IMG/VR virus record: IMGVR_UViG_2512047041_000008
Direction: 5' to 3' (one strand)
DNA length: 56,009 nucleotides
From: a virus
Taxonomy: Duplodnaviria > Heunggongvirae > Uroviricota > Caudoviricetes
A program made the translations under genes and the position numbers. Below the pieces are notes generated by a model. The model was not told the DNA's origin. It worked only from the letters and a program-made list of their open reading frames with translations, and searched no databases. This document shows positions 2,980-56,009 of the stretch, in pieces (position 1 is the stretch's first letter; every line of letters starts with the position of its first letter).

Positions 2980-3021
2980 TGAACCGCCCCGGGTTTCCTG
3001 GAGAGTGTTTTATCTGTGAAC

Positions 3022-3912
3022 TCAGGCTGCCAGATCATCGTTTCCGATGGAAGCATAATAAGCTTTTTCTGCTTCTGCCGGAGGAGTATGGCCCAGCCTT
3101 TCCAGCAATCGTCGATTGTTATACCAGTCCACCCACGTGAGTGTGGCCAGTTCCACTTCTGCACGGTTTTTCCAGCTCTTACGGTGTATTACCTCCGCTT
3201 TGTAAAGACCATTGATGCTCTCCGCCATCGCGTTGTCATACGAGTCGCCTGTACTTCCTGTTGATGCCAGTAATCCGGCTTCCTTAAGCCGCTGTGTGTA
3301 GGCCAGCGATACATACTGAGAACCTTTATCACTGTGATGGACCGTGCCGGACGGTCGACGGGCCCATAACGCCTGCTCCAGTGCATCCAGCACGAATGTC
3401 GTTTCCATGGACGATGAGACCCGCCACCCCACGATGTATCCGGCAAACACATCAATGATGAACGCCACATAGACGAAGCCCCGCCATGTGCTGACGTAAG
3501 TAAAATCAGCCACCCACAGCTGGTCAGGTCGTTCTGCCACGAACTGACGGTTTACGCGGTCGCCTGCGGCAACGGCTTTCCGGCTGATGGTCGTACGGAC
3601 CTTTTTACCCCGGAGAACACCGGCAAGTCCCATAACCGCCATGAGACGTGCCACAGTGCATCTGGCCACTCTGATACCTTCCCGTAACAACTGACGCCAG
3701 ACTTTACGCACACCGTATACCTTGTGATTTTCATCGTATACGCGCTGTATCTCTTTCTTCAGCCAGTCATCGCGCTGCGCACGGGCACTGCGTTTATCCG
3801 GATGATGTCGCTGTTGCTGACAGTGGTAATACGTTGACGGGGCAATATGCAGTTCGCTGCATAGCGGTCCGACCCCGTACTGCTCACGCAGCTTATCCAG
3901 CAGTGGCATCAT
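3022..3912 (-). CDS. IS629 transposase OrfB (DDE catalytic domain)
   Basis: 296 aa, DDE/rve-type; start overlaps orfA stop (ATGA). Confidence 0.85.
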
Positions 3913-4235
3913 TTTTTCCAGAGGCGGTCGAACTCCGCCTTCGCAAAATAAGCGGAAGCCTGGCGAAGGATATCGTTACTGCGGCGCAGTTCACGATTTT
4001 CACGTTCCAGCTCTTTCAGACGCTGACGTTCAGCGGTGGTGAGCCCTCCATCACCGCCCCCGGTATCCCGCTCATGCTGGCGAACCCAGACACGCAGAGT
4101 CTCCGGCGTACAGCCAATCTTTGGAGCAATGGAACAAATTGTCGCCCATTGTGAGTCATATTCGCTCTGACTTTCCAGAACCATACGGACTGCCCGTTGA
4201 CGGACTTCGGGGGAAAAACGAGTATTTTTAGTCAT
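3909..4235 (-). CDS. IS629 transposase OrfA (HTH)
   Basis: 108 aa, [19 protein letters not shown]...; IS3-family OrfA. Confidence 0.85.
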
Positions 4236-4289
4236 CCTGTTTACCTCTTTCTCAGGAAGTTTAGTCTCCAGGATTCCCGGGGCGGTTCA

Positions 4290-20564: not shown

Positions 20565-21905
<1,341 letters not shown>

Positions 21906-32770: not shown

Positions 32771-32983
32771 TCAAAGCGCCACTACATGAACAGCGGCAGG
32801 ACCTTTAGGTCCGTTCTCAATACCAAATTCAACTTCCTGATTCTCAGTTAATGTTTTGAAATCGTTGCTCTGAATTGCTGAGAAATGGACAAACACATCT
32901 TTGCTGCCATCTTTCGGCGTGATGAAACCAAAACCTTTTTCAGGGTTAAACCATTTCACTAAACCAGTCATTTTGTTAGACAT
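32771..32983 (-). CDS. cspI: Cold-shock protein CspI-like
   Basis: 70 aa; RNP motifs KGFGFI and VFVHF. Confidence 0.85.
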
Positions 32984-33345
32984 AATTATTACCTTTTGAA
33001 GAAATTAGCCCTTGGGCAGAATGGTCCGAAAAAAAATATCAGAGAGAAAAACCAACAAGGAAATCTCAAGAGGTACAAATAATAAAATTATAACAATGAC
33101 TGCTTCAGATAAATTTGTAACAAACCAGAACACCATTAACGCATGATTAACCACCCATAGCAAGGATTACTTTTGTAAAGAAAAACACAGCAATGAAAGA
33201 ATAGCTTTATTTATTAATAAAACGTGTCATTCTGATTAAGACCTTTTATCTTACCCTTAAGATTTCAGGAATTTTGGCTCATGGAAGAGTCCTTTTTATT
33301 TAAATTTTACATTCCGCGATGTAAATGTTCCGATTTAATATTACC

Positions 33346-35291: not shown

Positions 35292-35654
35292 TTGATTTTA
35301 TTAGTAACAAGTATTTTTTATATTTTAATAATATATTTAAAGCAGATAATAAAAAACCCGCCTGAGCGGGTTTGAGATTGTGGTGCTTTTTGTGGGAGTC
35401 ATCCACTTACGCACTTTGTTTTGCCATGCCAGCAGTTAGCTTCTGCTGTAAAACTATTCATGCAGCAAACCTGCACTTCACCACAATGGTTAGCATACTT
35501 TTCCTGATTAAGATTTTGCCAAATATGCTAGCCATTGTTTCATGTATTGGACCTCCTTACTTTTTATTAAAGAGATCCAATATTCACTACTCTGTCCGTA
35601 TCTCTACTCAGGCATCAGCCTTCTTCGTTATCGTATACAGACGAGCGATGAATT

Positions 35655-35870
35655 TTAATCAGTAATGATGACATTTGCTGCTGCAGGACCTTTAGCACCA
35701 CTCTCTATAGAGAAGGTAACCTTTTGACCTTCAAATAAGGTTCGATAATTATCATTCTGAATCGCAGAAAAATGCACAAACACATCTTTACTACCATCAA
35801 CAGGAGAAATAAAGCCGAAACCTTTATCAGCGTTAAACCATTTTACTAAACCAGTCATTTTATTTGACAT
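35655..35870 (-). CDS. cspB: Cold-shock protein CspB-like
   Basis: 71 aa with CspA-family RNP motifs. Confidence 0.85.
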
Positions 35871-36170
35871 TCTACATTCCTTAACTTGAGCCTTTCGGCA
35901 TAAATGGTTTGCATAACAGAAACGACTTCGTACTTAATTGGAGAGACTCAAAGAAGGAATAAGTGAATAACACCTGAAATGAGAACTGCTTTAGTAAACT
36001 ACTTCGTATATCGTCTGTTCTTCAAACCGACGCAATCATTAACGCATAGTTGAACATATGAAGCAATGTTTATTTTAGACATCCAGCCATCTTCAACCCC
36101 ATCAAAAAACTATAGCTTTCTTCAGGAACGTGTGTATAGTGCGCCAAGTTATCAGTATTAAGGAATTTTT

Positions 36171-36804: not shown

Positions 36805-39502
<2,698 letters not shown>

Positions 39503-39545
39503 TGAGGTGTACTGGCAATAGCGGACACAACCATTTGTTCTTTTT

Positions 39546-40364
39546 TTAAGCAGCCATCTGATGATATTTTTCCCTGAAGGCTGCCGGGGAGATATTCCCC
39601 AGACGAGAGTGACGACGCTGACGATTGTAGAAAATCTCAATGTATTCCCGTATTACTGAGATGGCTTCATCCCGGTTATTAAAACGATAGTGGCTCAGGC
39701 TCTCATTTTTCAGCGTTCCCCAGAAGCTTTCCATCGGAGCGTTGTCGTAACAGTTACCTTTACGCGACATTGATGTTTTCAGACCAAACTGCTCCTGTAT
39801 GACCCGGTAATCGTATGCGCAGTACTGTGAACCTCGATCAGAGTGGTGGATTAGCCCGGCAGGTGGGCGCTGGCTCCTGAGCGCCATAAACAGGGCTTTA
39901 CCTGTCAGCTCTTTTGTCATGCGCTCTCCCATGGCGTAGCCGACAATTTCGCACGTATAAACATCTTTGATGCCAGCGAGGTACAACCATCCCTCCTGTG
40001 TGGCAACATACGTCAGGTCCGCCACCCAGACCTGATTTGGTGCTGTAGGAGTGAACGTCTGGTTCAGCAGATTTGGCGCAACTGGCAGATTGTGGTTCGG
40101 GTTCGTAGTCGCTCTGAACTTGCGTTTCTGCTTACAGCGTAGCCTTAGCTCCTTACGAAGACGTGCCAGTCGGTCACGACCAACGATGATGCCATTCTCT
40201 GCCAGCTCCGTCTGGAGCCGCCGGGTTCCATATGTTTCGCGAGTGCGGATATGTGCCACCTTAATCTCCAGTTTTAGCCGCTCATCACTTTGTTTTCTGT
40301 CTGAGGGTTCATGCTGTACCCAGTTGTAATAACCGCTCCTGGATACACCAAATACCTGACACAT
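39546..40364 (-). CDS. IS600 transposase OrfB
   Basis: 272 aa DDE. Confidence 0.85.
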   Translation of the reverse strand: MCQVFGVSRSGYYNWVQHEPSDRKQSDERLKLEIKVAHIRTRETYGTRRLQTELAENGIIVGRDRLARLRKELRLRCKQKRKFRATTNPNHNLPVAPNLLNQTFTPTAPNQVWVADLTYVATQEGWLYLAGIKDVYTCEIVGYAMGERMTKELTGKALFMALRSQRPPAGLIHHSDRGSQYCAYDYRVIQEQFGLKTSMSRKGNCYDNAPMESFWGTLKNESLSHYRFNNRDEAISVIREYIEIFYNRQRRHSRLGNISPAAFREKYHQMAA

Positions 40365-40399
40365 CGCTTCAATGGGAAATTGTTGTCGCCATTGTTCGA

Positions 40400-40702
40400 T
40401 TAACGCGTATTTTTCAGCGACTCCTGTGCAAAATACGCTGTTGCTTTTTTTAATATATCTCGCTCAAGGCGAGCTTCATTTAACGCCTTACGCAGTTGCA
40501 GAATTTCAGATTCCAGTTCAGCCACCGTGCGGGAACCAGGAGTACCGAGCCCTTTTCTGGCGGCGGTAACCCATTGTCCTAAAGTGCCTTCAGGAAGAGA
40601 TAATCGGGAAGCGCCTTCGCTGATCGAAAGTTGATTTTCAAGAACCGTTCTGACAGCTTCGGCTTTGAACTCTTTAGAGTAACGTTGGTTTTTTCTGCTC
40701 AT
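40400..40702 (-). CDS. IS600 transposase OrfA
   Basis: 100 aa HTH, MSRKNQRYSKEFK... Confidence 0.85.
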   Translation of the reverse strand: MSRKNQRYSKEFKAEAVRTVLENQLSISEGASRLSLPEGTLGQWVTAARKGLGTPGSRTVAELESEILQLRKALNEARLERDILKKATAYFAQESLKNTR

Positions 40703-40766
40703 TATTAGCTCCTTCTGATGCCATTCTATTTCAGGAAGGAGTGTCCGTTAAACTCAGGCTACCTCA

Positions 40767-40784
40767 TAAGGCTTCAAGGTTCAT
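40767..40784 (-). pseudogene. quuQ: Antiterminator Q 5' end (first 6 codons, MNLEAL) upstream of the IS600 insertion
   Basis: ATG at 40782-40784 preceded by a GGAGAA ribosome-binding site; frame continues on the far side of IS600 as PKYYSPKSPKL... Confidence 0.55.
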
Positions 40785-40797
40785 GCTCGTTCTCCAC

Positions 40798-41886
40798 TTA
40801 CGCCAGTACGCCAATTGCCAGCGCGCGATCGATAAAACGAAATATCAGCTCCAGTTGGGAGCCATACTTATCTTCAAATGCCACTGTATCCGTATGCAGC
40901 TCGTTGTGATGCTTTCTGCACAAAGGCAACACAAAGAGATCATGTGCTTTTGTTCCCATTCCGCCCTGCCCGTGACCAATCAGATGATGCGGATCGTCGG
41001 CTGGCATACCGCAGCAAGCACACGGCTGTGTCTTAACCCAACGTGTGTATTTCTCCTTAACCCAGCGGCGACGTTTAGGCAGCTTCATGAAAGATTCCGG
41101 AGACTCTGGATCAACGGTGATGCTTACCACCGTCTTTTCCTGTGGTGATTTTTGTTGCTGGTGGGCGTAAGGCAACGGTGCAAGATTTTTTGTGCGTTGT
41201 TTCAATATGCTGGTGGCGGTCTGCTCTCCCGGTACGATGTCGCTTTCGCGGTACACCGAGCAGATTTTTTCCGCTGGTAATCCCAGCGAACGACGCGATA
41301 CAGCCTCAGGTAGTGCATCCACCACCTGATTGCAGACCGCCCACCAGGATAATTCAGCCAAAGATAATTCCCGCTCCTGCGTACCGCTTATTGCGTGACG
41401 GATGACGTCAATCACCCATGCTGTCAGATTTTGTTGAGCAAGCAGCTCCAGTGATTCCGATGTCTGGTCACGCAGTTGGTTGTCGCAGTGCCAGCACAAC
41501 ACCATTGCGCCGGTACCATAACGGTGAATGACTGTTTCAGTGTGATGGTAATCGCCATTAGGCCACTGGCAGGATGTAACATGACGTAATAGCCAGTCGG
41601 ACAATGCGCCAACGCCGCCAGCAGCACGAATCACCCGTTCGTTACTAAAAAACGGCAGCAATGTTTTGTCTTCCGCCAGCGGCTGGCGAACGGCAGGAAC
41701 GACTCCGGATGGCAGATTACGCATGCTTTTTGGTTCCGGTTCCACCAGCACTCGAGGATTATGAAATATCTGTATGGATTCACGGCCCGGCTTAAGGACC
41801 ACCAGCCCAAGCTCAGGCACCAGAACAGGTCTAAGTAATACCCGCACGTTACCTCCAGATCCGTTGCTGGAAAGTGCGGGACGCAC
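40798..41886 (-). CDS. ydfU: YdfU-like protein
   Basis: 362-aa ORF; true start may be internal (about 349 aa); position as in Qin. Confidence 0.7.
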   Translation of the reverse strand: MRPALSSNGSGGNVRVLLRPVLVPELGLVVLKPGRESIQIFHNPRVLVEPEPKSMRNLPSGVVPAVRQPLAEDKTLLPFFSNERVIRAAGGVGALSDWLLRHVTSCQWPNGDYHHTETVIHRYGTGAMVLCWHCDNQLRDQTSESLELLAQQNLTAWVIDVIRHAISGTQERELSLAELSWWAVCNQVVDALPEAVSRRSLGLPAEKICSVYRESDIVPGEQTATSILKQRTKNLAPLPYAHQQQKSPQEKTVVSITVDPESPESFMKLPKRRRWVKEKYTRWVKTQPCACCGMPADDPHHLIGHGQGGMGTKAHDLFVLPLCRKHHNELHTDTVAFEDKYGSQLELIFRFIDRALAIGVLA

Positions 41887-42127
41887 GTGGTGGGCGTTCG
41901 GAATAAGGCAGCCTGACAGAGATTATCCAGTGCCGATAGTCGAGACTGAGAGCTTTCTTAACCTCGAACCCGCGCCTGCGGTAAGAATGAATCAGCCATT
42001 CGGCCTGTTCTGCAGTGCATGGAGGGTGCTGGAACCATTCAGACTTGAATGCGTGAGAATACCGCCCGTGCGTGCAGGCAAGAACGGGCGAATTATCAGA
42101 ATTGTAATATTTTGCGTTGCGTGCCAT
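41849..42127 (-). CDS. rem: Rem-like protein
   Basis: 92-aa ORF positioned between ydfU and hokD. Confidence 0.6.
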   Translation of the reverse strand: MARNAKYYNSDNSPVLACTHGRYSHAFKSEWFQHPPCTAEQAEWLIHSYRRRGFEVKKALSLDYRHWIISVRLPYSERPPRASRTFQQRIWR

Positions 42128-42193
42128 CGGTTTTCTCCGGTGGCACGGTGTTACTCAGCGGGAGTTCAGCCCCGCGCAAGATTGTAGATGAGT

Positions 42194-42445
42194 TTATTCT
42201 CCTGAAAAAGCAGAAAAGCCAGCTTTTATTCCGATCTCTTTCAATGCCTGTAATGAAGTGACAAACTCACCTTCGCGCAAGATAAATCCGTCCGTGACCC
42301 GAGCATCCACAAAATTAATTAACGCAGCCCCATTCTTTCGCAAACACATAATGCGGTAATGACTAACAAGATTTCCATTTTCAACGCACACAGCATAGAG
42401 GCCATCTTCACAAAAAATTTTACGCAGTTCTTCGATGTTCATCAT
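42194..42445 (-). CDS. Hypothetical small protein
   Basis: 83-aa ORF, no recognised family. Confidence 0.4.
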   Translation of the reverse strand: MMNIEELRKIFCEDGLYAVCVENGNLVSHYRIMCLRKNGAALINFVDARVTDGFILREGEFVTSLQALKEIGIKAGFSAFSGE

Positions 42446-42661
42446 CAGAATCCTTCCGGATAATTAGCTCTCCCCTTTAAGGGACCATCCCTCTTATCCC
42501 TGCGCGCTACTTAAGTATTTTTGATTCTATTCCGGCACCGTCCAGAACTTCAAACGCGTTGAAAATAAAAACAAAAACCCGCCGAAGCGGGTTAAGTGCG
42601 GGTGCGTTGAGGATGCCTGCCACATCAGAGGTGGCGAGGGATTTCTCCCCCGCCGGGTCTC

Positions 42662-42817
42662 TTACTCCTCAGGTTCGTAAGCTGTGAAGACAGCGACCTC
42701 CGTCTGGCCGGTTCGGATTCGTACCTCGCAGAGGTCTTTCCTCGTTACCAGTGCCGTCACTATGACGGTTAAACAGATGACGATCAGGGCGATTAACATC
42801 GCCTTTTGCTGCTTCAT
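42662..42817 (-). CDS. hokD: Hok-family toxin
   Basis: 51 aa translated by hand from the minus strand, MKQQKAMLIALIVICLTVIVTALVTRKDLCEVRIRTGQTEVAVFTAYEPEE. Confidence 0.85.
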   Translation of the reverse strand: MKQQKAMLIALIVICLTVIVTALVTRKDLCEVRIRTGQTEVAVFTAYEPEE

Positions 42818-42888
42818 AGCCTGCTTCTCCTGTCAACGCAAAGCAGAAGTGTCACCTTCGGTGCGAAACAGAGATGTCATGCTTTGGT

Positions 42889-43176
42889 TCAGAGAATGCG
42901 TTTGACCGCCTCGCTATATACTTCCGAGCGTTCTCTTTTCCCAACAGAAATCACGAAAACGACAACTTTCTCGTCTATAACCTGGTATACAAGGCGATAG
43001 CCTGAAGACCGGAGCTTAATCTTGTAACAATCAGGCATACCACGGAGCTTGTTTGCTTCAATCCGGGGTGACTCAAGTACTTCAACCAGCTTCTTTTTCA
43101 ACTGTTCACGTACCGTCGAGCCCAGCTTTCGCCATTCCTTTAGTGCCCGCTCGTCAAAATCCAGAAAATACGCCAT
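42889..43176 (-). CDS. relE: RelE mRNA interferase toxin
   Basis: 95 aa, matches recalled RelE. Confidence 0.9.
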   Translation of the reverse strand: MAYFLDFDERALKEWRKLGSTVREQLKKKLVEVLESPRIEANKLRGMPDCYKIKLRSSGYRLVYQVIDEKVVVFVISVGKRERSEVYSEAVKRIL

Positions 43177-43415
43177 CAGAGTTCATCCAGCGTCACACGT
43201 ACTGGCTTAGGATTACGAAGCCGTTCTTTCACTATCTCCACAAGTTCAGCATCTTCATCACTCAGGAGTGTCTGTTTGAACGGCAAGCGTTCATTGTCAG
43301 CGATATACTCGAGCATGAGACGAAGCGCTTCAGAAGGAGTTACACCCATTTTTTCAAGCGCGGCGTAAGAACGCGCTTTAAGTTCATCGTCAATACGCAG
43401 GTTAATGCTACCCAT
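43176..43415 (-). CDS. relB: RelB antitoxin
   Basis: 79 aa, matches recalled RelB; overlaps relE start. Confidence 0.9.
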   Translation of the reverse strand: MGSINLRIDDELKARSYAALEKMGVTPSEALRLMLEYIADNERLPFKQTLLSDEDAELVEIVKERLRNPKPVRVTLDEL

Positions 43416-43419
43416 GTCT

Positions 43420-43456
43420 TACACCTCTTGTAATTACAAATGTCATTACAAGTATC
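43420..43456 (-). promoter_or_regulatory. relBE operator/promoter region (relO repeats)
   Basis: CTTGTAATGACATTTGTAATTACAAG repeats immediately upstream of the relB ATG. Confidence 0.55.
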
Positions 43457-43745
43457 GCACTACAACATGCTTAGGGCAAGTCACGAAGGAAGTCAGAAAG
43501 TAGTCGTAAGAACGGTGATCACTGTCCGCTTTGTGCCAGGAGCAGCCATTGCTAAGTCCATCCTGTATTGTGCAGGTCAGCTCGTTTTTAAAGAGTCCGG
43601 CCATCATCTTACTGGTACAGACACCATATACTTTGTGACGGTCAGGCTACATATGCACAACTCAACTTATTCATCTATTTTTTGCTTTAGCATGTCAGTG
43701 TTGCTTTCTCGTCGGCGGGTGAGCGGTGACCTGAACTGTCGATAA
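43440..43745 (+). CDS. ydfV: YdfV-like hypothetical protein
   Basis: 101-aa ORF divergent from relB, as in Qin. Confidence 0.5.
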   Translation: MSLQVSHYNMLRASHEGSQKVVVRTVITVRFVPGAAIAKSILYCAGQLVFKESGHHLTGTDTIYFVTVRLHMHNSTYSSIFCFSMSVLLSRRRVSGDLNCR

Positions 43746-43947
43746 AGGAACGTAACACGTTTTATGCAACACCCGCATGCGGCAGAAAATTATTGCCGAA
43801 CGTTTACCCCTGTCAACAAGCTTTACTTTCTGAGGCGCGCCAGCCCGCGAGGAAAACAATCTGAACATCAAACAATTAATGACACAAGAAATACGATTAA
43901 AGATTTTTTTGTGCATGCCGATAGTGCTTTTTTAAAAGGAGAAATCT

Positions 43948-44280
43948 ATGTCTGTCACAATTCAGGGAAATACCTCAACCGTTATTTCAAACAACTCCGC
44001 CCCGGAAGGAACATCAGAAATAGCCAAAATCACAAGACAAATTCAGGTGCTGACTGAAAAGCTTGGGAAAATCTCATCGGAAGAGGGGATGACGACACAG
44101 CAGAAAAAAGAAATGGCTGCATTGGTACAGAAGCAAATTGAAAGCCTCTGGGCTCAACTGGAGCAGTTGTTAAGGCAGCAGGCAGAGAAAAAGAATGAAG
44201 ACGCGACAGTTCAGCCTGATAAAAAAGAAGAGAAAAAAGACGATACAAATACCGCTGGCACCATTGATATTTACGTCTAA
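43948..44280 (+). CDS. flxA: FlxA-like protein
   Basis: 110 aa, coiled coil, KE-rich C-terminus. Confidence 0.75.
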   Translation: MSVTIQGNTSTVISNNSAPEGTSEIAKITRQIQVLTEKLGKISSEEGMTTQQKKEMAALVQKQIESLWAQLEQLLRQQAEKKNEDATVQPDKKEEKKDDTNTAGTIDIYV

Positions 44281-44323
44281 GTGAACCGCCCCGGGTTTCC
44301 TGGAGAGTGTTTTATCTGTGAAC

Positions 44324-45214
44324 TCAGGCTGCCAGATCATCGTTTCCGATGGAAGCATAATAAGCTTTTTCTGCTTCTGCCGGAGGAGTATGGCCCAGCC
44401 TTTCCAGCAATCGTCGATTGTTATACCAGTCCACCCACGTGAGTGTGGCCAGTTCCACTTCTGCACGGTTTTTCCAGCTCTTACGGTGTATTACCTCCGC
44501 TTTGTAAAGACCATTGATGCTCTCCGCCATCGCGTTGTCATACGAGTCGCCTGTACTTCCTGTTGATGCCAGTAATCCGGCTTCCTTAAGCCGCTGTGTG
44601 TAGGCCAGCGATACATACTGAGAACCTTTATCACTGTGATGGACCGTGCCGGACGGTCGACGGGCCCATAACGCCTGCTCCAGTGCATCCAGCACGAATG
44701 TCGTTTCCATGGACGATGAGACCCGCCACCCCACGATGTATCCGGCAAACACATCAATGATGAACGCCACATAGACGAAGCCCCGCCATGTGCTGACGTA
44801 AGTAAAATCAGCCACCCACAGCTGGTCAGGTCGTTCTGCCACGAACTGACGGTTTACGCGGTCGCCTGCGGCAACGGCTTTCCGGCTGATGGTCGTACGG
44901 ACCTTTTTACCCCGGAGAACACCGGCAAGTCCCATAACCGCCATGAGACGTGCCACAGTGCATCTGGCCACTCTGATACCTTCCCGTAACAACTGACGCC
45001 AGACTTTACGCACACCGTATACCTTGTGATTTTCATCGTATACGCGCTGTATCTCTTTCTTCAGCCAGTCATCGCGCTGCGCACGGGCACTGCGTTTATC
45101 CGGATGATGTCGCTGTTGCTGACAGTGGTAATACGTTGACGGGGCAATATGCAGTTCGCTGCATAGCGGTCCGACCCCGTACTGCTCACGCAGCTTATCC
45201 AGCAGTGGCATCAT
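44324..45214 (-). CDS. IS629 transposase OrfB
   Basis: Identical to the copy 1 OrfB. Confidence 0.85.
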
Positions 45215-45537
45215 TTTTTCCAGAGGCGGTCGAACTCCGCCTTCGCAAAATAAGCGGAAGCCTGGCGAAGGATATCGTTACTGCGGCGCAGTTCACGATT
45301 TTCACGTTCCAGCTCTTTCAGACGCTGACGTTCAGCGGTGGTGAGCCCTCCATCACCGCCCCCGGTATCCCGCTCATGCTGGCGAACCCAGACACGCAGA
45401 GTCTCCGGCGTACAGCCAATCTTTGGAGCAATGGAACAAATTGTCGCCCATTGTGAGTCATATTCGCTCTGACTTTCCAGAACCATACGGACTGCCCGTT
45501 GACGGACTTCGGGGGAAAAACGAGTATTTTTAGTCAT
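45211..45537 (-). CDS. IS629 transposase OrfA
   Basis: Identical to the copy 1 OrfA. Confidence 0.85.
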
Positions 45538-46029
45538 CCTGTTTACCTCTTTCTCAGGAAGTTTAGTCTCCAGGATTCCCGGGGCGGTTCAAAGTGACAG
45601 CCGTATTGTGGCCCTCATCGGGCCACTTTTCGCCATCAGCCTTTTCTTTAAAGACATATTATCTTTGTATCATTTCTGATAGTTAACATTACAAGATATA
45701 AGTAATGGACGCACTCCCAATTAGTCTATTTAAATCGCCACGAGTTTAACTGACAACCCATGATCAATTATGAATTGCAACTATTTCTGTAGTCACTTTT
45801 GTGGGGACAGTCCACAAAACTGCCAACTTCCGCTTCTTGCTCTTAGCGGACATTAGCATAGGCTATTTACCATAACGCCTCATTACGCGCACCGCCCAGA
45901 CTGACTCAGCGCGTTTCTGGCATATCCCCGGTAAAACAAGTAACAAACCACCCGAAAATGAACACCAGAAACGCGACTTAAGAATCTACCCTATGAATGG
46001 ATATGCACTCAACCGAATCGATCTTGGTT

Positions 46030-46125
46030 TCAATCTTTTTTATCGGGATCAGGCTTCTTTTTAGGTAACTTCGGGGGCTTAACTTGCTGATGACTTTGCG
46101 TTCGGCGCGTAAGCCAGGGATGGTC
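46030..46125 (-). pseudogene. C-terminal tail of a DDE transposase gene, split from its body by IS600 copy 2
   Basis: Frame continues ...YYVKPKAD-HPWLTRRTQSHQQVKPPKLPKKKPDPDKKD* after removing the IS and one GTC copy. Confidence 0.6.
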
Positions 46126-46168
46126 TGAGGTGTACTGGCAATAGCGGACACAACCATTTGTTCTTTTT

Positions 46169-46987
46169 TTAAGCAGCCATCTGATGATATTTTTCCCTGA
46201 AGGCTGCCGGGGAGATATTCCCCAGACGAGAGTGACGACGCTGACGATTGTAGAAAATCTCAATGTATTCCCGTATTACTGAGATGGCTTCATCCCGGTT
46301 ATTAAAACGATAGTGGCTCAGGCTCTCATTTTTCAGCGTTCCCCAGAAGCTTTCCATCGGAGCGTTGTCGTAACAGTTACCTTTACGCGACATTGATGTT
46401 TTCAGACCAAACTGCTCCTGTATGACCCGGTAATCGTATGCGCAGTACTGTGAACCTCGATCAGAGTGGTGGATTAGCCCGGCAGGTGGGCGCTGGCTCC
46501 TGAGCGCCATAAACAGGGCTTTACCTGTCAGCTCTTTTGTCATGCGCTCTCCCATGGCGTAGCCGACAATTTCGCACGTATAAACATCTTTGATGCCAGC
46601 GAGGTACAACCATCCCTCCTGTGTGGCAACATACGTCAGGTCCGCCACCCAGACCTGATTTGGTGCTGTAGGAGTGAACGTCTGGTTCAGCAGATTTGGC
46701 GCAACTGGCAGATTGTGGTTCGGGTTCGTAGTCGCTCTGAACTTGCGTTTCTGCTTACAGCGTAGCCTTAGCTCCTTACGAAGACGTGCCAGTCGGTCAC
46801 GACCAACGATGATGCCATTCTCTGCCAGCTCCGTCTGGAGCCGCCGGGTTCCATATGTTTCGCGAGTGCGGATATGTGCCACCTTAATCTCCAGTTTTAG
46901 CCGCTCATCACTTTGTTTTCTGTCTGAGGGTTCATGCTGTACCCAGTTGTAATAACCGCTCCTGGATACACCAAATACCTGACACAT
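46169..46987 (-). CDS. IS600 transposase OrfB
   Basis: Identical to the copy 1 OrfB. Confidence 0.85.
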   Translation of the reverse strand: MCQVFGVSRSGYYNWVQHEPSDRKQSDERLKLEIKVAHIRTRETYGTRRLQTELAENGIIVGRDRLARLRKELRLRCKQKRKFRATTNPNHNLPVAPNLLNQTFTPTAPNQVWVADLTYVATQEGWLYLAGIKDVYTCEIVGYAMGERMTKELTGKALFMALRSQRPPAGLIHHSDRGSQYCAYDYRVIQEQFGLKTSMSRKGNCYDNAPMESFWGTLKNESLSHYRFNNRDEAISVIREYIEIFYNRQRRHSRLGNISPAAFREKYHQMAA

Positions 46988-47022
46988 CGCTTCAATGGGA
47001 AATTGTTGTCGCCATTGTTCGA

Positions 47023-47325
47023 TTAACGCGTATTTTTCAGCGACTCCTGTGCAAAATACGCTGTTGCTTTTTTTAATATATCTCGCTCAAGGCGAGCTTC
47101 ATTTAACGCCTTACGCAGTTGCAGAATTTCAGATTCCAGTTCAGCCACCGTGCGGGAACCAGGAGTACCGAGCCCTTTTCTGGCGGCGGTAACCCATTGT
47201 CCTAAAGTGCCTTCAGGAAGAGATAATCGGGAAGCGCCTTCGCTGATCGAAAGTTGATTTTCAAGAACCGTTCTGACAGCTTCGGCTTTGAACTCTTTAG
47301 AGTAACGTTGGTTTTTTCTGCTCAT
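47023..47325 (-). CDS. IS600 transposase OrfA
   Basis: Identical to the copy 1 OrfA. Confidence 0.85.
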   Translation of the reverse strand: MSRKNQRYSKEFKAEAVRTVLENQLSISEGASRLSLPEGTLGQWVTAARKGLGTPGSRTVAELESEILQLRKALNEARLERDILKKATAYFAQESLKNTR

Positions 47326-47389
47326 TATTAGCTCCTTCTGATGCCATTCTATTTCAGGAAGGAGTGTCCGTTAAACTCAGGCTACCTCA

Positions 47390-48610: not shown

Positions 48611-48944
48611 GAAAAATCCCCCAGAGAATTGTCTGGGGACATTTTAGAATGGTTCAAAGGGGACATTACAGCTTGGTGTTAACAATAGCCTGCTTCTCCG
48701 TGCCTTTCGGCACGTAAGAGGCTAACCTACATGTGTCTAGCATGAAATTGGCCTCAGATTAATGTTAAGCGTCTTGCAGGACGCGTAATGTTAACTGGGG
48801 CTTTTCTCTATCTGCCGTTGGTGTCCATGCCCGAGGCAGATAGCCTCAAGCACCCGCAGTCATTCTACTTAACTAAGATTTCCCCGCAAACCGTTTTTGT
48901 CCAGCACAGTAAATATCCAACTAAACCAATGGAGTTCGCTGTAT

Positions 48945-50633: not shown

Positions 50634-51052
50634 TGCGCCACGTCCTGAAAATTACCCTGATAGAAAGCCAGTATGCGCTGCATAACTTCGCTCTTCCGGC
50701 ACTCGCGACAGATTATGTTTAGGCGACTGTCGTAGCGACGTATTTCTCCGTCAGGTGATGACCAGATAAGGTCCGGATCAACCACAGCAGGTTTCTTCAC
50801 CTTTGCCCTCGAGAGTTTTTTGCGGGCGTTTTGCCAGTCCTTACGCGCCTGTTCAGAGGGGAATAACCCGTAGCCGGAGTTGTATACATCGCCACTGGCT
50901 ACCAGCTCTCTGGCAAGAACGCTCATCAGATATCTAGTCGCACCTGTTTTAGCTTCCAGTTGCCGTAACGTCTCACGGCCGCTCTGGCGCACGAGTTCCA
51001 CCACCTGCCATTTAATTTTTTCCCGCTCTTCTTGTGTAAAAACTTTTGCCAC
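50630..51052 (-). CDS. Hypothetical phage protein downstream of the replication gene
   Basis: 140-aa ORF overlapping the methyltransferase start. Confidence 0.45.
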   Translation of the reverse strand: MAKVFTQEEREKIKWQVVELVRQSGRETLRQLEAKTGATRYLMSVLARELVASGDVYNSGYGLFPSEQARKDWQNARKKLSRAKVKKPAVVDPDLIWSSPDGEIRRYDSRLNIICRECRKSEVMQRILAFYQGNFQDVAQ

Positions 51053-51092
51053 AAGTCCCCCTTAAAATTACCTCATGACCTGAAATCAACAC

Positions 51093-52112
51093 TTATCCTC
51101 TGAAACCAGGCGGAATTTCTGTATCCGGTTCAGAAATATGATTAACACAACGCTGTACAGGTGAACGTCCCAGGCGGATGACCAGTTCGTCCCATTTTTC
51201 GCGGAGCTTTGACGGGCTCATGATGTTTTTTACCCAGAATGGATCTCGCTGAACCCGACCAAACATTTCGCAAATTTGTCTGTGGCTTCTGCCATCCAGC
51301 ATCCGCATTGTGCGCACGTCATTGGCCCAGGCAGTCCAGTTAGGCTCTTTTGGTCGCATGATCTCGCCATCATCACTGGCTGCCTGTTCGTAGAGACCCA
51401 CGATCCGCCCCCAGATCCACTGCGCACACGCCAAATCCTCCCTGCTACCCCACTGGCGTTTTTTCGCACTAAACACAACCGCGTCGGAGTTCCGGGTTAA
51501 AAAATCCTGTTCAGTCGTCTGCGGGTCCGGTTGCGAAGCTTCCGGACGAAAAGTGTTTTTATTCTCTGTAGTAATCTCTGTTGTATTCTCTGTAAGATCA
51601 TCAGGCCATTTTGACCCGATGACATTGGGTCGTTTTGAACCAATGGAGCGTTTCATTTTGACCTCTTCCATCGTGTCATTTTGACCTGATGGAGCGGCGC
51701 ATTTTGAACCGATGGATTCGCTCAATTTGCCACCATCTAAAAGCTCGCTCCCATAGTTGATCGTGTAGAAATTGGTCATATCGCGCTTTGATTTATTGAG
51801 CTTTTCACAACGCAAAAGCCCCAGCGTTTTCAGACTTGCAAACGCGCGCTTTAACGTTGACTCTGACCAGAATGGGAACTGTTCCAGCCATTGTTCCGTT
51901 GTGTTATAAATCCAGCGAACACCATCACATTCCATGCCGGAGTTGGTATCTCTCAACCAGTAGTGCAGTTGTTGCAAAACAATGGCTTCGTTTAAGCCAA
52001 TTTTCATTGCCAGCTGCGTGTTTATAACCAGTGGGCGTTCAGCAAAAAGAAGGCTCATAATTCCATCCAGCTTTTTGTTGGTATTGCTGTCGATACGCAA
52101 GTTTGAAAGCAA
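51093..52112 (-). CDS. Replication initiation protein (lambda O-like role) with internal iterons
   Basis: 339 aa; iteron array inside the gene, as for lambda ori within O; repeated IGSK peptide motifs encoded by the iterons. Confidence 0.6.
   Translation of the reverse strand: MLSNLRIDSNTNKKLDGIMSLLFAERPLVINTQLAMKIGLNEAIVLQQLHYWLRDTNSGMECDGVRWIYNTTEQWLEQFPFWSESTLKRAFASLKTLGLLRCEKLNKSKRDMTNFYTINYGSELLDGGKLSESIGSKCAAPSGQNDTMEEVKMKRSIGSKRPNVIGSKWPDDLTENTTEITTENKNTFRPEASQPDPQTTEQDFLTRNSDAVVFSAKKRQWGSREDLACAQWIWGRIVGLYEQAASDDGEIMRPKEPNWTAWANDVRTMRMLDGRSHRQICEMFGRVQRDPFWVKNIMSPSKLREKWDELVIRLGRSPVQRCVNHISEPDTEIPPGFRG
51605..51740. repeat. Putative replication origin: about 6 direct iterons (core ATTTTGA(A/C)C, period 22-24 bp) within the replication gene
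   Basis: Cores at about 51609, 51633, 51655, 51678, 51702, 51724. Confidence 0.6.
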
Positions 52113-52452
52113 TTGCTTTTTCTATAAGTTCGTCAGTTTCACGATCCACTACGGCAGGATCAGCAAAAAGCAGTCCGGACTCCACCACATCGCCATATTC
52201 TTTGTTTAACCCGGCGATCATGCACGTGATGCTTTTTCCGTCAGTAATTTCACGATACAACCTGAAATCATTAATCCGGATAGCCTCCATAATTGCAGGC
52301 ACTAGCGCCGTGAACTTTTCACGCTTATCCCTGGTGTCGATAGCCTTCCAGCGTTCAAATATCTTCACTCGATTAACGCCAAGCGCTCGCTGATCAATCG
52401 CGCCACCTTCATATGTGACACGCTGAACATCGATGTTCGGGCGCTCTTTCAA
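52039..52452 (-). CDS. Hypothetical phage protein; start lies 18 bp from the IS629-like copy 3 boundary (possibly 5'-truncated)
   Basis: 137-aa ORF overlapping the replication gene start. Confidence 0.35.
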   Translation of the reverse strand: MKERPNIDVQRVTYEGGAIDQRALGVNRVKIFERWKAIDTRDKREKFTALVPAIMEAIRINDFRLYREITDGKSITCMIAGLNKEYGDVVESGLLFADPAVVDRETDELIEKAIAFKLAYRQQYQQKAGWNYEPSFC

Positions 52453-52511
52453 AGCCCAGAATGCTTCAGTGAACCGCCCCGGGTTTCCTGGAGAGTGTTT
52501 TATCTGTGAAC

Positions 52512-53399
52512 TCAGGCTGCCAGATCATTGTTTCCGATGGAAGCATAATAAGCTTTTTCTGCTTCTGCCGGAGGAGTATGGCCCAGCCTTCCCAGTAATC
52601 GTCGATTGTTATACCAGTCCACCCACGTTAGTGTGGCCAGTTCCACTTCTGCACGGTTTTTCCAGCTCTTACGGTGTATTACCTCCGCTTTGTAAAGACC
52701 ATTGATGCTCTCAGCCATCGCGTTGTCATACGAGTCGCCTGTACTTCCTGTTGATGCCAGTAATCCGGCTTCTTTTAGTCGCTCCGTATAGGCCAGTGAC
52801 ACATACTGAGAGCCTTTATCGCTGTGATGGATGGTGCCAGACGGACGACGGGCCCACAACGCCTGCTCCAGCGCATCCAGCACGAATGTCGTTTCCATAG
52901 ACGATGAGACCCGCCACCCCACGATGTATCCAGCAAACACATCAATGATAAACGCCACATAGACGAAGCCCTGCCATGTGCTGACGTAAGTAAAATCAGC
53001 CACCCACAGCTGGTCAGGACGTTCTGCCACGAACTGACGGTTTACGCGGTCACCTGTGGCAACGGTTTTCCGGCTGACGGTAGTGCGGACCTTTTTACCC
53101 CGGAGAACACCGGCAAGTCCCATAACCGCCATGAGGCGCGCCACTGTACATCTGGCCACCCTGATTCCTTCCCGTAACAACTGACGCCAGACTTTACGCA
53201 CACCGTACACCTGATGATTTTCATCGTATACGCGCTGTATCTCTCTCTTCAGCCAGTCATCGCGCTGCGCACGGGTACAGCGTTTATCAGGATGATGCCG
53301 CTGCTGCTGACAGTGGTAATACGTTGACGGGGCAATATGCAGTTCACTGCATACAGGTCCGACCCCGTACTGCTCACGCAGCTTATCCAGCAGTGGCAT
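52512..53399 (-). CDS. IS629-like transposase OrfB (variant)
   Basis: 295 aa, DDE. Confidence 0.8.
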   Translation of the reverse strand: MPLLDKLREQYGVGPVCSELHIAPSTYYHCQQQRHHPDKRCTRAQRDDWLKREIQRVYDENHQVYGVRKVWRQLLREGIRVARCTVARLMAVMGLAGVLRGKKVRTTVSRKTVATGDRVNRQFVAERPDQLWVADFTYVSTWQGFVYVAFIIDVFAGYIVGWRVSSSMETTFVLDALEQALWARRPSGTIHHSDKGSQYVSLAYTERLKEAGLLASTGSTGDSYDNAMAESINGLYKAEVIHRKSWKNRAEVELATLTWVDWYNNRRLLGRLGHTPPAEAEKAYYASIGNNDLAA

Positions 53400-53725
53400 T
53401 ATTTTTTCCAGAGGCGGTCGAACTCCGCCTTCGCAAAATAAGCGGAAGCCTGGCGAAGGATATCGTTACTGCGGCGCAGTTCACGATTTTCACGTTCCAG
53501 CTCTTTCAGACGCTGACGTTCAGCGGTGGTGAGCCCACCATCACCGCCCCCGGTATCCCGCTCATGCTGGCGAACCCAGACACGCAGAGTCTCTGGCGTA
53601 CAGCCAGTCTTTGGAGCAATGGAACAAATTGCCGCCCATTGTGAGTCATATTCGTCCTGACTTTCCAGAACCATACGAACTGCCCGTTGACGGACTTCGG
53701 GGGAAAAACGTGTATTTTTAGTCAT
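53399..53725 (-). CDS. IS629-like transposase OrfA (variant)
   Basis: 108 aa, a few substitutions relative to copies 1 and 2. Confidence 0.8.
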
Positions 53726-53828
53726 CCTGTTTACCTCTTTCTCAGGAAGTTTAGTCTCCAGGATTCCCGGGGCGGTTCAGAACGGTCATCACGAAATCAC
53801 ATCCACCAGCAGGACGTGTGACCATCTA

Positions 53829-54371
53829 ATGATCGACCTTGAAACCATGGGAAAAAATCCTGATGCCCCGATCATCTCAATAGGTGCAATATTTTTCGAT
53901 CCGCAAACCGGAGATATGGGACCGGAATTTAGTAAGACTATCGATCTGGAAACTGCTGGCGGAGTCATTGATCGGGACACCATTAAATGGTGGCTTAAGC
54001 AATCACGCGAAGCGCAATCTGCCATTATGACCGATGAAATCCCGTTAGATGATGCACTGTTACAATTGCGAGAATTTATCGACGAAAACTCCGGTGAATT
54101 TTTTGTTCAGGTTTGGGGAAATGGAGCCAACTTCGACAACACGATTTTGCGCCGTTCATACGAACGGCAGGGGATCCCCTGCCCGTGGCGTTACTACAAC
54201 GATCGCGATGTACGCACAATCGTTGAGCTGGGGAAAGCCATAGACTTCGATGCCAGAACGGCTATTCCATTCGAAGGTGAGCGCCATAATGCACTTGATG
54301 ACGCCCGTTACCAGGCAAAATACGTTTCAGTTATCTGGCAAAAACTGATCCCGAGTCAGGCTGATTCTTAA
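53829..54371 (+). CDS. 3'-5' exonuclease, DEDD (DnaQ-like) superfamily
   Basis: Exo I-like DLETMG and Exo III-like HNALDDARY motifs; co-oriented with int. Confidence 0.7.
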   Translation: MIDLETMGKNPDAPIISIGAIFFDPQTGDMGPEFSKTIDLETAGGVIDRDTIKWWLKQSREAQSAIMTDEIPLDDALLQLREFIDENSGEFFVQVWGNGANFDNTILRRSYERQGIPCPWRYYNDRDVRTIVELGKAIDFDARTAIPFEGERHNALDDARYQAKYVSVIWQKLIPSQADS

Positions 54372-54443
54372 TGTTCAACTGTCGCCGGTTGTGACTGGTA
54401 TTCTGCAACCGGCGCTCGTCTGATGTAAGAGATAAAGAAATCG

Positions 54444-54694
54444 ATGAGCGAAGTAATCATGATTGTCTCTCCCGGCAAATGGGTATCCGAAGAGCAGTTA
54501 ATTGCGCTGAAAGGAATAAAAAAGGTACGTTAAAAAAGGCCCGGGAAAAATCGTTTATGGAAGGAAGGGAATATAAGCATGTCGCTCATGACGGTATGCC
54601 ATGGGATAACAGTCCATGCTTTTACAACCTGGAAGAAATTGATCGCTGGATTGAGCGCCAGGCATCAGCGAGACCAAGACGTCATCTTACTTGA
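54444..54694 (+). pseudogene. xis: Possible excisionase (xis) with a frameshift at an A6 run
   Basis: Frame 1 MSEVIMIVSPGKWVSEEQLIALKGIKK then frame 2 ...GTLKKAREKSFMEGREYKHV...; the GREY segment resembles lambda Xis DGREYLF; A-run at about 54519-54524. Confidence 0.35.
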
Positions 54695-54713
54695 CTAAAA
54701 ACCACACTAACTA

Positions 54714-56009
54714 ATGAGAGAAGTTGAAATGAAATATCCGACAGGCGTGGAAAACCATGGAGGGAAATTACGTATCTGGTTTGTTTATAAAGACGTAAGA
54801 GTCAGGGAAAATCTGGGGGTTCCTGACACAGCAAAAAACAGGCGCGTTGCAGGTGAACTACGCTCCTCTGTTTGTTACGCAATAAAAACTGGTGTTTTCG
54901 ACTATGCAAAACAGTTTCCCTCCTCACGCAATCTGGAAAAATTTGGTGAGGCCCGACAAGATTTAACCATAAAAGAACTGGCTGAAAAATTTCTGGCACT
55001 GAAAGAAACTGAAGTCGCCAAAACATCACTCAACACATACCGTGCCGTCATCAAAAATATCCTGAGCATAATCGGTGAAAAAAATCTTGCCTCATCGATT
55101 AATAAAGAAAAATTACTGGAGGTTCGTAAAGAGTTACTGACTGGATACCAGATCCCCAAAAGTAACTATATTGTTACACAACCAGGGAGATCGGCTGTAA
55201 CTGTAAATAATTACATGACAAATCTTAACGCCGTGTTCCAGTTTGGTGTTGATAACGGTTACCTGGCAGATAATCCGTTTAAGGGGATCTCGCCATTAAA
55301 GGAATCAAGAACCATTCCGGATCCTCTTTCGCGGGAAGAATTTATCCGTCTTATCGATGCGTGCAGAAATCAGCAAGCAAAAAATTTATGGTGTGTTTCT
55401 GTTTATACTGGAGTTCGCCCTGGTGAGCTGTGTGCACTTGGATGGGAGGACATAGATCTGAAAAATGGAACAATGATGATCAGGAGAAATTTAGCAAAAG
55501 ACCGTTTCACGGTACCAAAAACACAGGCGGGAACCAATCGGGTCATTCATCTTATTAAGCCAGCAATCGACGCTCTCCGGAGTCAGATGACATTAACGAG
55601 ACTGAGCAAAGAGCATATCATTGATGTTCACCTCAGAGAGTATGGCAGAACAGAAAAACAAAAATGCACCTTTGTTTTTCAACCTGAAGTGTCAGCGAGA
55701 GTAAAAAATTATGGTGACCATTTTACCGTTGACTCAATAAGGCAGATGTGGGACGCAGCGATAAAACGTGCCGGACTCCGCCATCGAAAATCATATCAGT
55801 CGAGACATACTTATGCCTGCTGGTCGCTGACAGCTGGTGCTAACCCGGCATTTATAGCAAACCAGATGGGCCATGCAGATGCGCAAATGGTATTTCAGGT
55901 ATACGGAAAATGGATGTCTGAAAACAATAATGCACAGGTAGCTTTGTTAAATACACAGTTAAGCGAGTTTGCCCCAACCATGCCCCATAACGAAGCAATG
56001 AAAAATTAA
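54714..56009 (+). CDS. int: Tyrosine integrase (phage integrase family)
   Basis: 431-aa ORF with C-terminal R...H-x-x-R...Y catalytic pattern; possible internal start MKYPTG; ends at the window edge. Confidence 0.85.
   Translation: MREVEMKYPTGVENHGGKLRIWFVYKDVRVRENLGVPDTAKNRRVAGELRSSVCYAIKTGVFDYAKQFPSSRNLEKFGEARQDLTIKELAEKFLALKETEVAKTSLNTYRAVIKNILSIIGEKNLASSINKEKLLEVRKELLTGYQIPKSNYIVTQPGRSAVTVNNYMTNLNAVFQFGVDNGYLADNPFKGISPLKESRTIPDPLSREEFIRLIDACRNQQAKNLWCVSVYTGVRPGELCALGWEDIDLKNGTMMIRRNLAKDRFTVPKTQAGTNRVIHLIKPAIDALRSQMTLTRLSKEHIIDVHLREYGRTEKQKCTFVFQPEVSARVKNYGDHFTVDSIRQMWDAAIKRAGLRHRKSYQSRHTYACWSLTAGANPAFIANQMGHADAQMVFQVYGKWMSENNNAQVALLNTQLSEFAPTMPHNEAMKN

Follow-up and report, generated by a model that had tools for sequence, protein, structure and literature searches.

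The window, by which we mean the whole 56,009-nt stretch analyzed here (IMG/VR record IMGVR_UViG_2512047041_000008), is a defective Qin-type E. coli prophage integrated adjoining rspB. The ydfJ gene of AR_0013 aligns to window positions 1-1284, the Qin ydfJ side, and the integrase at the other end of the window adjoins rspB in the PGAP annotations of N32, IAI39, and FORC_082, placing the integration between ydfJ and rspB. The prophage thus occupies the same chromosomal locus as Qin (Kim) of K-12, from ydfJ/ydfK to the integrase adjoining rspB, and the two have cspB/F/I, essD, rrrQ, flxA, relE, ydfU, and other neighbors in common. K-12 Qin retains dicA, dicC, and dicB and is not known to carry replication or structural genes; the window prophage, in contrast, keeps its head, tail, and replication genes, but nothing is left of its dicC-dicA region.

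No record in the collection compared is collinear with the whole window. N32 matches it identically only from ~46.1 kb on and carries chromosomal DNA to the left of its IS600, and window positions 40767-46125 are absent from IAI39; the prophage is broken at IS600 in N32 and at an IS629 within gpFI in IAI39. The features on which the analysis draws are listed below by window position.

2980..4289, minus strand: IS629 copy 1, "type A"; GTC/GTC target duplication; recombination partner of copy 3 in AR_0013 and AF57
39503..40766, minus strand: IS600 copy a; TAA duplication
44282..45591, minus strand: IS629 copy 2, "type A", identical to copy 1; AAG/AAG target duplication
46126..47389, minus strand: IS600 copy b, identical to copy a; GTC duplication
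51093..52058, minus strand: O-like replication initiator gene, intact, 320 aa (PHROG 391 "replication initiation O-like", E 1.5e-91)
52039..52469, minus strand: 3' remnant of a ydaT / cII-like gene (Pfam YdaT_toxin; PHROG 163 "CII-like transcriptional activator")
52467..52469, no strand: left flanking triplet of copy 3, CAG, without a duplicate on the right
52470..53779, minus strand: IS629-family copy 3, "type B" allele, intact, 1310 bp, terminal repeats located; replaces at least 2421 bp of prophage DNA
52512..53399, minus strand: orfB of copy 3, 295 aa (Pfam HTH_21 and rve DDE domain), 96% identical to copy 1 orfB
53328..53444, minus strand: ALIL frameshift pseudoknot of copy 3 (Rfam RF01497, 116.9 bits)
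53399..53725, minus strand: orfA of copy 3, 108 aa (Pfam HTH_Tnp_1)
53780..53782, no strand: right flanking triplet of copy 3, GAA, without a duplicate on the left
53780..54371, plus strand: 592-nt 3' remnant of an 823-aa phage exonuclease gene (PHROG 2082, positions 644-822/823)
54479..54694, plus strand: excisionase gene, frameshifted (Pfam DUF1233; PGAP "xisR frameshifted")
54714..56009, plus strand: tyrosine integrase, intact (Pfam Arm-DNA-bind_2 and Phage_integrase; PGAP places rspB directly downstream in relatives; Qin attachment side)

The O-like gene corresponds to the PGAP CDS WP_000054512.1 in N32 and FORC_082, and the excisionase frameshift is a 1-nt deletion near 54518, visible as a single gap in the FORC_082 alignment. 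PGAP treats the ydaT remnant as a pseudogene whose N-terminus is missing. The original prediction, made from the letters alone, had assigned copy 3 to 52039-53829; the IS proper spans 52470-53779, and the remainder of that interval takes in a truncated gene to its left and 50 nt to its right. It had also set copy 3 directly between the O-like gene and an exonuclease/xis/int block, but the left neighbor is the ydaT remnant, with the O-like gene behind it, and of the exonuclease gene on the right only the 592-nt 3' remnant is left.

Three IS629-family copies in one prophage

The window holds three IS629-family copies, each 1310 bp long and all in the same (minus) orientation. Both end motifs were found in every copy, and the imperfect terminal inverted repeats start TGAACCGCCCCGGG. 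In copy 3, orfA and orfB overlap with a -1 frameshift, which PGAP annotates as a "programmed frameshift". Identity was judged against PGAP-named and IS1203-named copies as references: copies 1 and 2 are 99.6-100% identical to an IAI39 copy that PGAP labels "IS629 family", and copy 3 is 96-97% identical to copies named IS1203. The PGAP label on the type B copy is only "IS3 family transposase", and that on type A is "IS629 family".

Copy 3 is 95.5% identical to copies 1 and 2. The 59 mismatches among 1310 positions are scattered across 60-1242, and a search of them for a mosaic pattern, as left by a crossover between unlike copies, gave no switch point. Sequence subtypes of IS629 that lie 4-5% apart have already been described, and 62% of the copies in O157:H7 sit in prophages (PMC3271280). 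Copy 3 therefore resembles IS629 / IS1203 in its length, terminal repeats, orfA/orfB domains, ALIL pseudoknot, and prophage location, and departs from them as a 4.5%-divergent allele without a target duplication, a lack that it shares with more than half of the O157:H7 sites.

The flanks bear out the matching 3-bp duplications reported for copies 1 (GTC) and 2 (AAG), as well as the mismatch at copy 3, where CAG faces GAA. Extending the comparison at copy 3 to 4 bp (TCAG vs GAAC) gave no match, and realignment of its IS ends uncovered no hidden 3- or 4-bp duplication. Because the three copies share identical terminal sequences, shifting the IS ends cannot create one.

IS629 duplications are 3-4 bp long and are present at only 21 of 47 O157:H7 sites (absent at 26; PMC3271280), so the missing duplication would on its own be weak evidence of a rearrangement. 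It is the comparison with related prophages that goes beyond it and demonstrates a deletion. The absence of a duplication at copy 3 reflects a secondary rearrangement and has no bearing on its membership of IS629.

DNA missing at copy 3

We compared the locus with IS-free relatives of the same rspB-linked Qin-type prophage, namely FORC_082, RM9131, and SF4-1. The window up to 52469 matches FORC_082 up to 4470 (99.96% over 2472 nt), and the window from 53780 matches FORC_082 from 6892 (99.8% over 2231 nt); the 2421 bp between these FORC_082 breakpoints are absent from the window. In RM9131 and SF4-1, the same two points lie ~4.5 kb apart. Both flanks of copy 3 are thus collinear with, and nearly identical to, relatives that carry extra DNA in place of the IS, and the deletion amounts to at least 2.4 kb and up to ~4.5 kb, depending on the relative. 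No relative has the junction without the IS. In FORC_082, the sequence past the left breakpoint begins TGA, as does the IS, which leaves the left breakpoint ambiguous by 3 nt.

The left breakpoint lies 91 nt (30 codons) inside the 522-nt ydaT gene of SF4-1 and FORC_082, and the right one at nt 1881 (codon ~627) of the intact 2472-nt exonuclease gene of MSB1_9I. In the exonuclease remnant, an ATG at 53829 opens a 180-aa ORF (53829-54371) that corresponds to one complete Rv2179c-like 3'-5' exoribonuclease domain (Pfam PF16473, E 3.8e-67, profile 4-177/177). No sigma-70-like sites turned up when 51900-54500 was scanned for hybrid promoters reading outward across the IS junctions.

The content of the missing DNA was read from PGAP and Pfam, which identify dicC as Cro-like (P22_Cro) and dicA as CI-like (HTH_3 in RM9131). 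Relative to FORC_082, the window lacks the 5' end of ydaT, both dicC and dicA with the intergenic region between them, and the 5' three quarters of the exonuclease gene; relative to the fuller relatives, it additionally lacks ydfA-C, DicF (Rfam), dicB, and ydfD, with the first 1880 nt of the exonuclease gene. The closest IS-free relative, FORC_082, is itself not intact: its dicB operon is already gone, and its dicA carries a frameshift. The dicA/dicC immunity pair, present in FORC_082, RM9131, and SF4-1, is missing from its Qin position in the window because copy 3 occupies that position, which in IS-free Qin-type relatives holds dicC and dicA and, in some, DicF, dicB, and ydfD as well.

We therefore consider copy 3 very probably the mark of an IS629-associated deletion of the immunity and early-left region in a defective Qin-type prophage. 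This agrees with the original prediction of an IS-associated loss of the repressor/operator region, and the comparison with intact prophages that it called for recovered, at the same locus, the expected extra DNA with dicC, dicA, and their intergenic region. The expected position was right, as the IS-free relatives confirm, but the genes lost are dicA and dicC rather than cI, cro, and N. An IS-associated deletion that leaves no duplication is a well-known phenomenon.

The left junction of copy 3 recurs in the independent assemblies of N32 and IAI39, and the right junction in N32, IAI39 (a finished genome), AR_0013, and AF57. Although IS copies are classic sites of mis-joining, recurrence across independently sequenced genomes excludes an assembly artefact, and the 2.4 kb are demonstrably gone. 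A simple insertion whose duplication has since decayed by point mutation is no more credible, since the flanks differ from IAI39 at only 1 of 4620 and 1 of 2230 nt, and three substitutions within 3 bp cannot reasonably be expected; we give artefacts of either kind practically no weight. The deletion is ancestral to a small clade comprising this strain, N32, IAI39, and the parents of AR_0013 and AF57. One set of apparent sharers of the right junction, genomes with an IS next to the exonuclease gene (query 1471-4501), was rejected; their ISs lie 132-1442 nt further upstream and are independent insertions.

Several E. coli lineages have lost the same dic region independently of one another. Separate IS629-bridged deletions cover it in MMC-J-0105 (flanks TCC/GGT) and in the Z1323CEC group, and MSB1_9I has an IS-free deletion of part of it, so the region can also vanish without an IS. 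Separate IS629-family insertions with target duplications lie in the same exonuclease gene of RM9131 (GAC) and cS100a (AAT). These repeated losses fit a dicA/dicB division-inhibitor module that is dispensable or costly after prophage decay.

The deletion would have left the prophage without the dicA/dicC repressor pair at its position, without the divergent early promoter region, and without most of the early-left operon. The cII-like and exonuclease genes are also truncated, and xis is frameshifted. Taken together, the loss of the repressor and early region, the truncated genes, and the frameshifted xis suggest a prophage fixed in place and predicted to be non-inducible; the deletion and the xis frameshift account for its state as such a remnant. 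The locus serves as a worked example of how the lack of a target duplication can point to a hidden deletion and how IS-free relatives settle such a case quickly, and it leaves the current understanding of IS biology and prophage decay unchanged.

Routes to a duplication-free deletion

Missing duplications have been attributed to recombination between IS copies or to adjacent deletion (PMC11708052), and either could apply here; each would begin with an ordinary IS629 insertion at one end point or the other. Along the first route, a second, co-oriented IS629 would insert at the other end point, and homologous recombination between the copies would delete the interval, the surviving copy retaining half of each duplication, CAG from one and GAA from the other. 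Along the second, the transposase would make an adjacent deletion from a single IS629, with no second resident copy, by joining an IS end intramolecularly to a nearby site; in variants of this route, the attacker could be an active IS end, a tandem (IS)2 dimer acting through its junction, or a circle as it reinserts. The two routes would leave the same product.

We lean slightly towards recombination between two copies. Precedents exist within the same prophage lineage, and the three other rearrangements that can be reconstructed there are all homologous IS-by-IS events: in AR_0013 and AF57, copies 1 and 3 have recombined into a single IS flanked by GTC and GAA, with a loss of ~49.5 kb; IAI39 has one IS600 with TAA/GTC flanks, linking the left flank of copy a to the right flank of copy b; and the EAL-locus IS of N32 is chimeric, part type A and part type B, and its left flank is new. 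IS-by-IS recombination is thus demonstrably frequent in the IAI39/N32 lineage, and IS629 and IS600 recombine in this IAI39-like background often enough to delete blocks of 2-50 kb and to overwrite each other.

The transposase-made deletion has a substantial chance of being correct, though the smaller of the two. In the Lenski lines, 14 of 83 events involving IS150, also of the IS3 family, were duplication-free deletions; all 14 adjoined a pre-existing resident IS, and some grew stepwise (PMC11708052). One proposal explains deletions by "sloppy" strand transfer from a single IS629 end (bioRxiv 10.1101/2023.06.07.543989), the orfA, orfB, and frameshift pseudoknot of copy 3 are all intact, and MMC-J-0105 and the Z1323CEC group have the independent IS629-bridged deletions of this region described above. 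IEE-promoted excision and deletion (Kusumoto et al. 2011, as recounted in the same preprint) involves the same IS family and deletions that begin at an IS629 end; in that account, however, such events take out the IS along with flanking DNA and leave no intact IS, whereas copy 3 is intact.

The copy 3 junction and the Lenski-line IS150 deletions have in common an intact IS3-family element at the joint, the lack of a duplication, and flanks collinear with undeleted sequence. Unlike those cases, no precursor state was found among the genomes searched here, and the steps cannot be placed in order. The intermediates sought were an IS between two GAA triplets at the exonuclease site and one between two CAG triplets at the ydaT site, for which the predicted junctions are ...AATTAAGGTGAA joined to TGAACCGCC and ...GGCGGTTCA joined to CAGTGATTAATATC. 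Synthetic junction queries matched none of 5,426 complete E. coli genomes, and exact-pattern scans of metagenome contigs and species-representative genomes likewise returned no hits. As no genome retains either intermediate, the order of events and the route remain inferred. Nor does the IS body record a crossover, since it is purely type B in the window and purely type A in IAI39.

The want of a precursor in any collection searched would also agree with a one-step event, in which an IS629 circle integrates into a pre-existing double-strand gap or break and neither a duplication nor a precursor ever exists. Ngan et al. propose duplication-free IS movements of this kind, associated with large rearrangements, but the IS3-family cases that they could trace all had a precursor insertion, and an old event in a small clade would in any case be expected to leave no intermediates; we regard this explanation as very unlikely. 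Mismatched flanks could likewise arise if copy 3 had taken part in an inversion or translocation with a distant IS629 copy, and IAI39 and N32 do carry large IS-mediated rearrangements elsewhere, but such an event would put unrelated or inverted DNA on one side, whereas in an IS-free prophage the two flanks are co-oriented and separated by just 2.4 kb, making it hardly conceivable.

Possible replacement of the IS body at a fixed junction

The same junction carries different IS bodies in different members of the clade: type B in the window and N32, and type A in IAI39, AR_0013, and AF57, where the body contains a 2.26-kb group II intron. The junctions are nucleotide-identical between the two body types, and the flanks differ at 2 of 6,850 nt. 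Different subtypes at identical junctions imply gene conversion confined to the IS, in which the type B copy at the EAL/cadC locus would be the likely donor or recipient.

The crossover interval of the N32 EAL-locus chimera falls at IS positions 503-550 and spans the intron insertion site (~516-524). That the IS was replaced wholesale by ectopic gene conversion and, more boldly, that intron-bearing IS629 copies drive such exchanges and then lose the intron is a speculative reading to which we assign a small chance; recombination would then take place within or at the intron, with the intron lost afterwards. If true, group II introns would shape IS-mediated genome rearrangement in this lineage.

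Copy 3 and its junctions in the Qin prophage

The window is an entire prophage at the Qin locus, with a left end that aligns with ydfJ, ydfK and a pinQ-like recombinase gene, and a right end carrying an intact integrase that adjoins rspB in related genomes. It holds three IS629-family copies, numbered from left to right, in one common orientation:

2980-4289, transposase on minus strand: IS629 copy 1, 1310 bp, flanks GTC/GTC
44282-45591, transposase on minus strand: IS629 copy 2, 1310 bp, flanks AAG/AAG
52470-53779, transposase on minus strand: IS629-family copy 3, 1310 bp, left CAG, right GAA
Left of copy 3, minus strand: Ren-like/DUF977 gene
Left of copy 3, minus strand: O-like replication initiator (PHROG 391, E 1.5e-91)
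52039-52469, minus strand, immediately left of copy 3: ydaT/cII-like remnant
Right of copy 3, plus strand: exonuclease-gene remnant, the 592-nt 3' part of an 823-aa gene
54479-54694, plus strand, right of copy 3: excisionase gene, 1-nt deletion near 54518 relative to the E. coli relative FORC_082
Right of copy 3, plus strand: intact integrase, downstream of the excisionase gene

Copies 1 and 2 are identical in sequence and each has perfect 3-bp direct repeats, as the original prediction had read them. Its claim that copy 3 has no target-site duplication also stands: CAG faces GAA, a 4-bp reading (TCAG/GAAC) is mismatched too, and because all three copies have identical ends, no shift of the boundaries yields a duplication. 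The interval assigned to copy 3, 52039-53829, does contain the element, but the IS itself spans only 52470-53779, the excess being the ydaT/cII-like remnant and 50 nt ahead of the exonuclease-remnant ATG. Similarly, the exonuclease/xis/int neighbors on the plus side were correctly placed, but on the left it is the ydaT/cII-like remnant, beside the O-like gene, that adjoins copy 3.

Copy 3 is an intact element with orfA (HTH_Tnp_1), orfB (HTH_21 + rve) and an ALIL frameshift pseudoknot. Compared with copies 1 and 2 it has 59 differences, scattered over 60-1242, and is thus a separate allele (type B; copies 1 and 2 are type A), with 96% identity between its OrfB and that of copy 1. IS629 subtypes 4-5% apart have been described previously (PMC3271280).

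The left junction of copy 3 is present in two genomes (N32 and IAI39), and the contiguous right junction, among the matches listed, in four (N32, IAI39, AR_0013 and AF57). Recurrence in independent assemblies rules out a mis-join. The flanks differ from those of IAI39 at 1/4620 nt and 1/2230 nt, indicating an event shared by descent in a small clade. The window is identical to neither genome carrying both junctions: N32 matches only from ~46.1 kb rightward, with chromosomal genes left of its IS600, and in IAI39 window 40767-46125 is absent and copy 3 contains an intron.

Also missing from the otherwise collinear IAI39 prophage is a stretch of ~1.4 kb with a 448-aa ORF (window 31164-32588); an antiterminator gene interrupted by an IS21/IS100-like pair (istA/istB, window 37142-38943) is found in both. 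Rfam matches elsewhere in the prophage comprise isrC sRNA (20724-20846), two cspA-type thermoregulator leaders (32744-33129 and 35639-36031) and sok antitoxin RNA (48684-48855), the last a hok/sok module next to an ISNCY remnant.

DNA missing at the junction

A megablast search of window 51000-55500 against 5,426 complete E. coli genomes recovered IS-free relatives in which both copy 3 flanks are present but wider apart. In the closest, FORC_082 (coordinates within its extracted Qin-type locus), the left flank (window ..52469, FORC_082 ..4470) is 99.96% identical over 2472 nt and the right flank (window 53780.., FORC_082 6892..) 99.8% over 2231 nt; between these points FORC_082 has 2421 bp that the window lacks. 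Within this segment lie 91 nt from the 5' end of ydaT, the genes dicC (Pfam P22_Cro) and dicA with the intergenic region separating them, and the 5' part of the exonuclease ORF; measured on an intact exonuclease gene of 2472 nt, the right breakpoint falls at nt 1881. Part of the early-left operon is already gone from FORC_082. The interval in RM9131 and SF4-1 additionally carries ydfA (DUF1391), two small ORFs, DicF RNA (Rfam, 72.5 bits), dicB, ydfD and the exonuclease gene in full, so that ~4.5 kb is missing from the window relative to these strains; an Rfam scan found no DicF in the window. Comparison with intact Qin-like prophages thus gave the predicted answer, dicC/dicA-bearing DNA between the flanks, and supports the proposed IS-associated loss of the repressor/operator region.

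Both regulators are gone from the prophage, as is the stretch between them in which divergent early promoters and operators would be expected, and so are the 5' end of the cII-like gene and the bulk of the early-left operon. With xis frameshifted as well, neither induction nor excision of the prophage is expected. No sigma-70-like promoter was predicted at either junction of copy 3. An IS3-family element at a deletion joint in a decaying prophage belongs to a well-described, already known class, with which this case shares both the missing duplication and the setting.

Origin of the deletion

We lean towards a two-copy route, in which two co-oriented IS629 elements would have inserted, one in ydaT with a CAG duplication and the other in the exonuclease gene with a GAA duplication, and homologous recombination between them would have left one IS with half of each duplication. 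This preference rests on the other reconstructable rearrangements in the lineage, all of which are IS-by-IS homologous events. AR_0013 and AF57 (locus 4621-8200) have a single IS whose left flank (GTC) is that of copy 1 and whose right flank (GAA) is that of copy 3; this IS is a copy 1 x copy 3 recombinant, and both strains have lost the ~49.5 kb prophage body between the two copies. Two further elements of the window are involved elsewhere:

39503-40766: IS600 copy, own 3-bp duplication TAA
46126-47389: IS600 copy, identical to the former, own 3-bp duplication GTC

In IAI39 a single IS600 is preceded by TAA and followed by GTC, and the intervening DNA, including IS629 copy 2, is absent; in N32, recombination at IS600 has involved a remote chromosomal site (ydcO region). 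The IS at the EAL/cadC locus of N32 (4002-5311) is a type A/type B chimera that follows type A as far as position 503 and type B from 550 onward, with a left flank unlike that of IAI39 and papI in place of a DUF4942 gene. The EAL locus of IAI39 carries a type B copy (2501-3810) flanked by CGC/CCT, without a duplication.

Independent IS629-family insertions with target duplications occur in the same exonuclease gene in other strains (RM9131, GAC; cS100a, AAT). Synthetic junctions joining FORC_082 sequence to IS ends, used to seek intermediates, found none of the predicted precursors in the 5,426 complete E. coli genomes, a metagenome collection or species-representative genomes, and the body of copy 3 shows no allele switch marking a crossover. 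A credible alternative starts from one insertion, with transposase then making an adjacent deletion: in the Lenski lines, 14/14 duplication-free IS150 deletions adjoined a pre-existing IS150 (PMC11708052), and for IS629 "sloppy" strand transfer by one end has been suggested (bioRxiv 10.1101/2023.06.07.543989), although the IEE-type deletions described there take the IS away too.

Allele replacement and recurrent loss of the region

IAI39, AR_0013 and AF57 carry a type A IS at the CAG-IS-GAA or GAA-side junctions (IAI39 locus 4621-8200), with a 2.26 kb group II intron (ltrA) at IS position ~516-524, and the window and N32 have an intron-free type B body at the same junction. Between the window and IAI39 the flanks differ at 2/6,850 nt and the IS bodies at 59/1310, a combination which implies that the IS body was overwritten from another copy, by gene conversion confined to the IS. 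The type B copy at the IAI39 EAL locus matches copy 3 at every position except 1278 and 1280. This replacement of allele and intron at a fixed junction is the only mildly unusual element of the case. The crossover interval of the N32 chimera (503-550) includes the position at which the intron is inserted; about 3.6% of randomly placed crossovers would land in these 47 nt.

Loss of the region is common, the window being one case of several. In MMC-J-0105, an independent type A IS629 bridges FORC_082 positions 4069 and 6760 without duplication (TCC/GGT); in a group of chicken isolates (e.g. Z1323CEC0010), the IS629 right flank starts at FORC_082 position 6680 and several other IS elements are stacked on the left; and MSB1_9I lost ydaT'-dicC-dicA-ydfABC without any IS. 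At the MSB1_9I junction (1540-1866), a shorter ydaT remnant is joined straight to dicB, and dicB, ydfD and an intact exonuclease gene are kept; the loss of dicA yet retention of dicB is surprising, since DicA represses the division inhibitor.

The three independent IS629-bridged deletions (Z1323CEC0010, MMC-J-0105 and the window) end at FORC_082 6680, 6760 and 6892, and their bridging elements share one orientation, which the search method was biased towards finding. An internal ATG 49-261 nt downstream of these endpoints starts a complete 180-aa Rv2179c-like 3'-5' exoribonuclease domain (window 53829-54371), and the position of the endpoints could reflect either an insertion hot spot or selection for keeping this domain.
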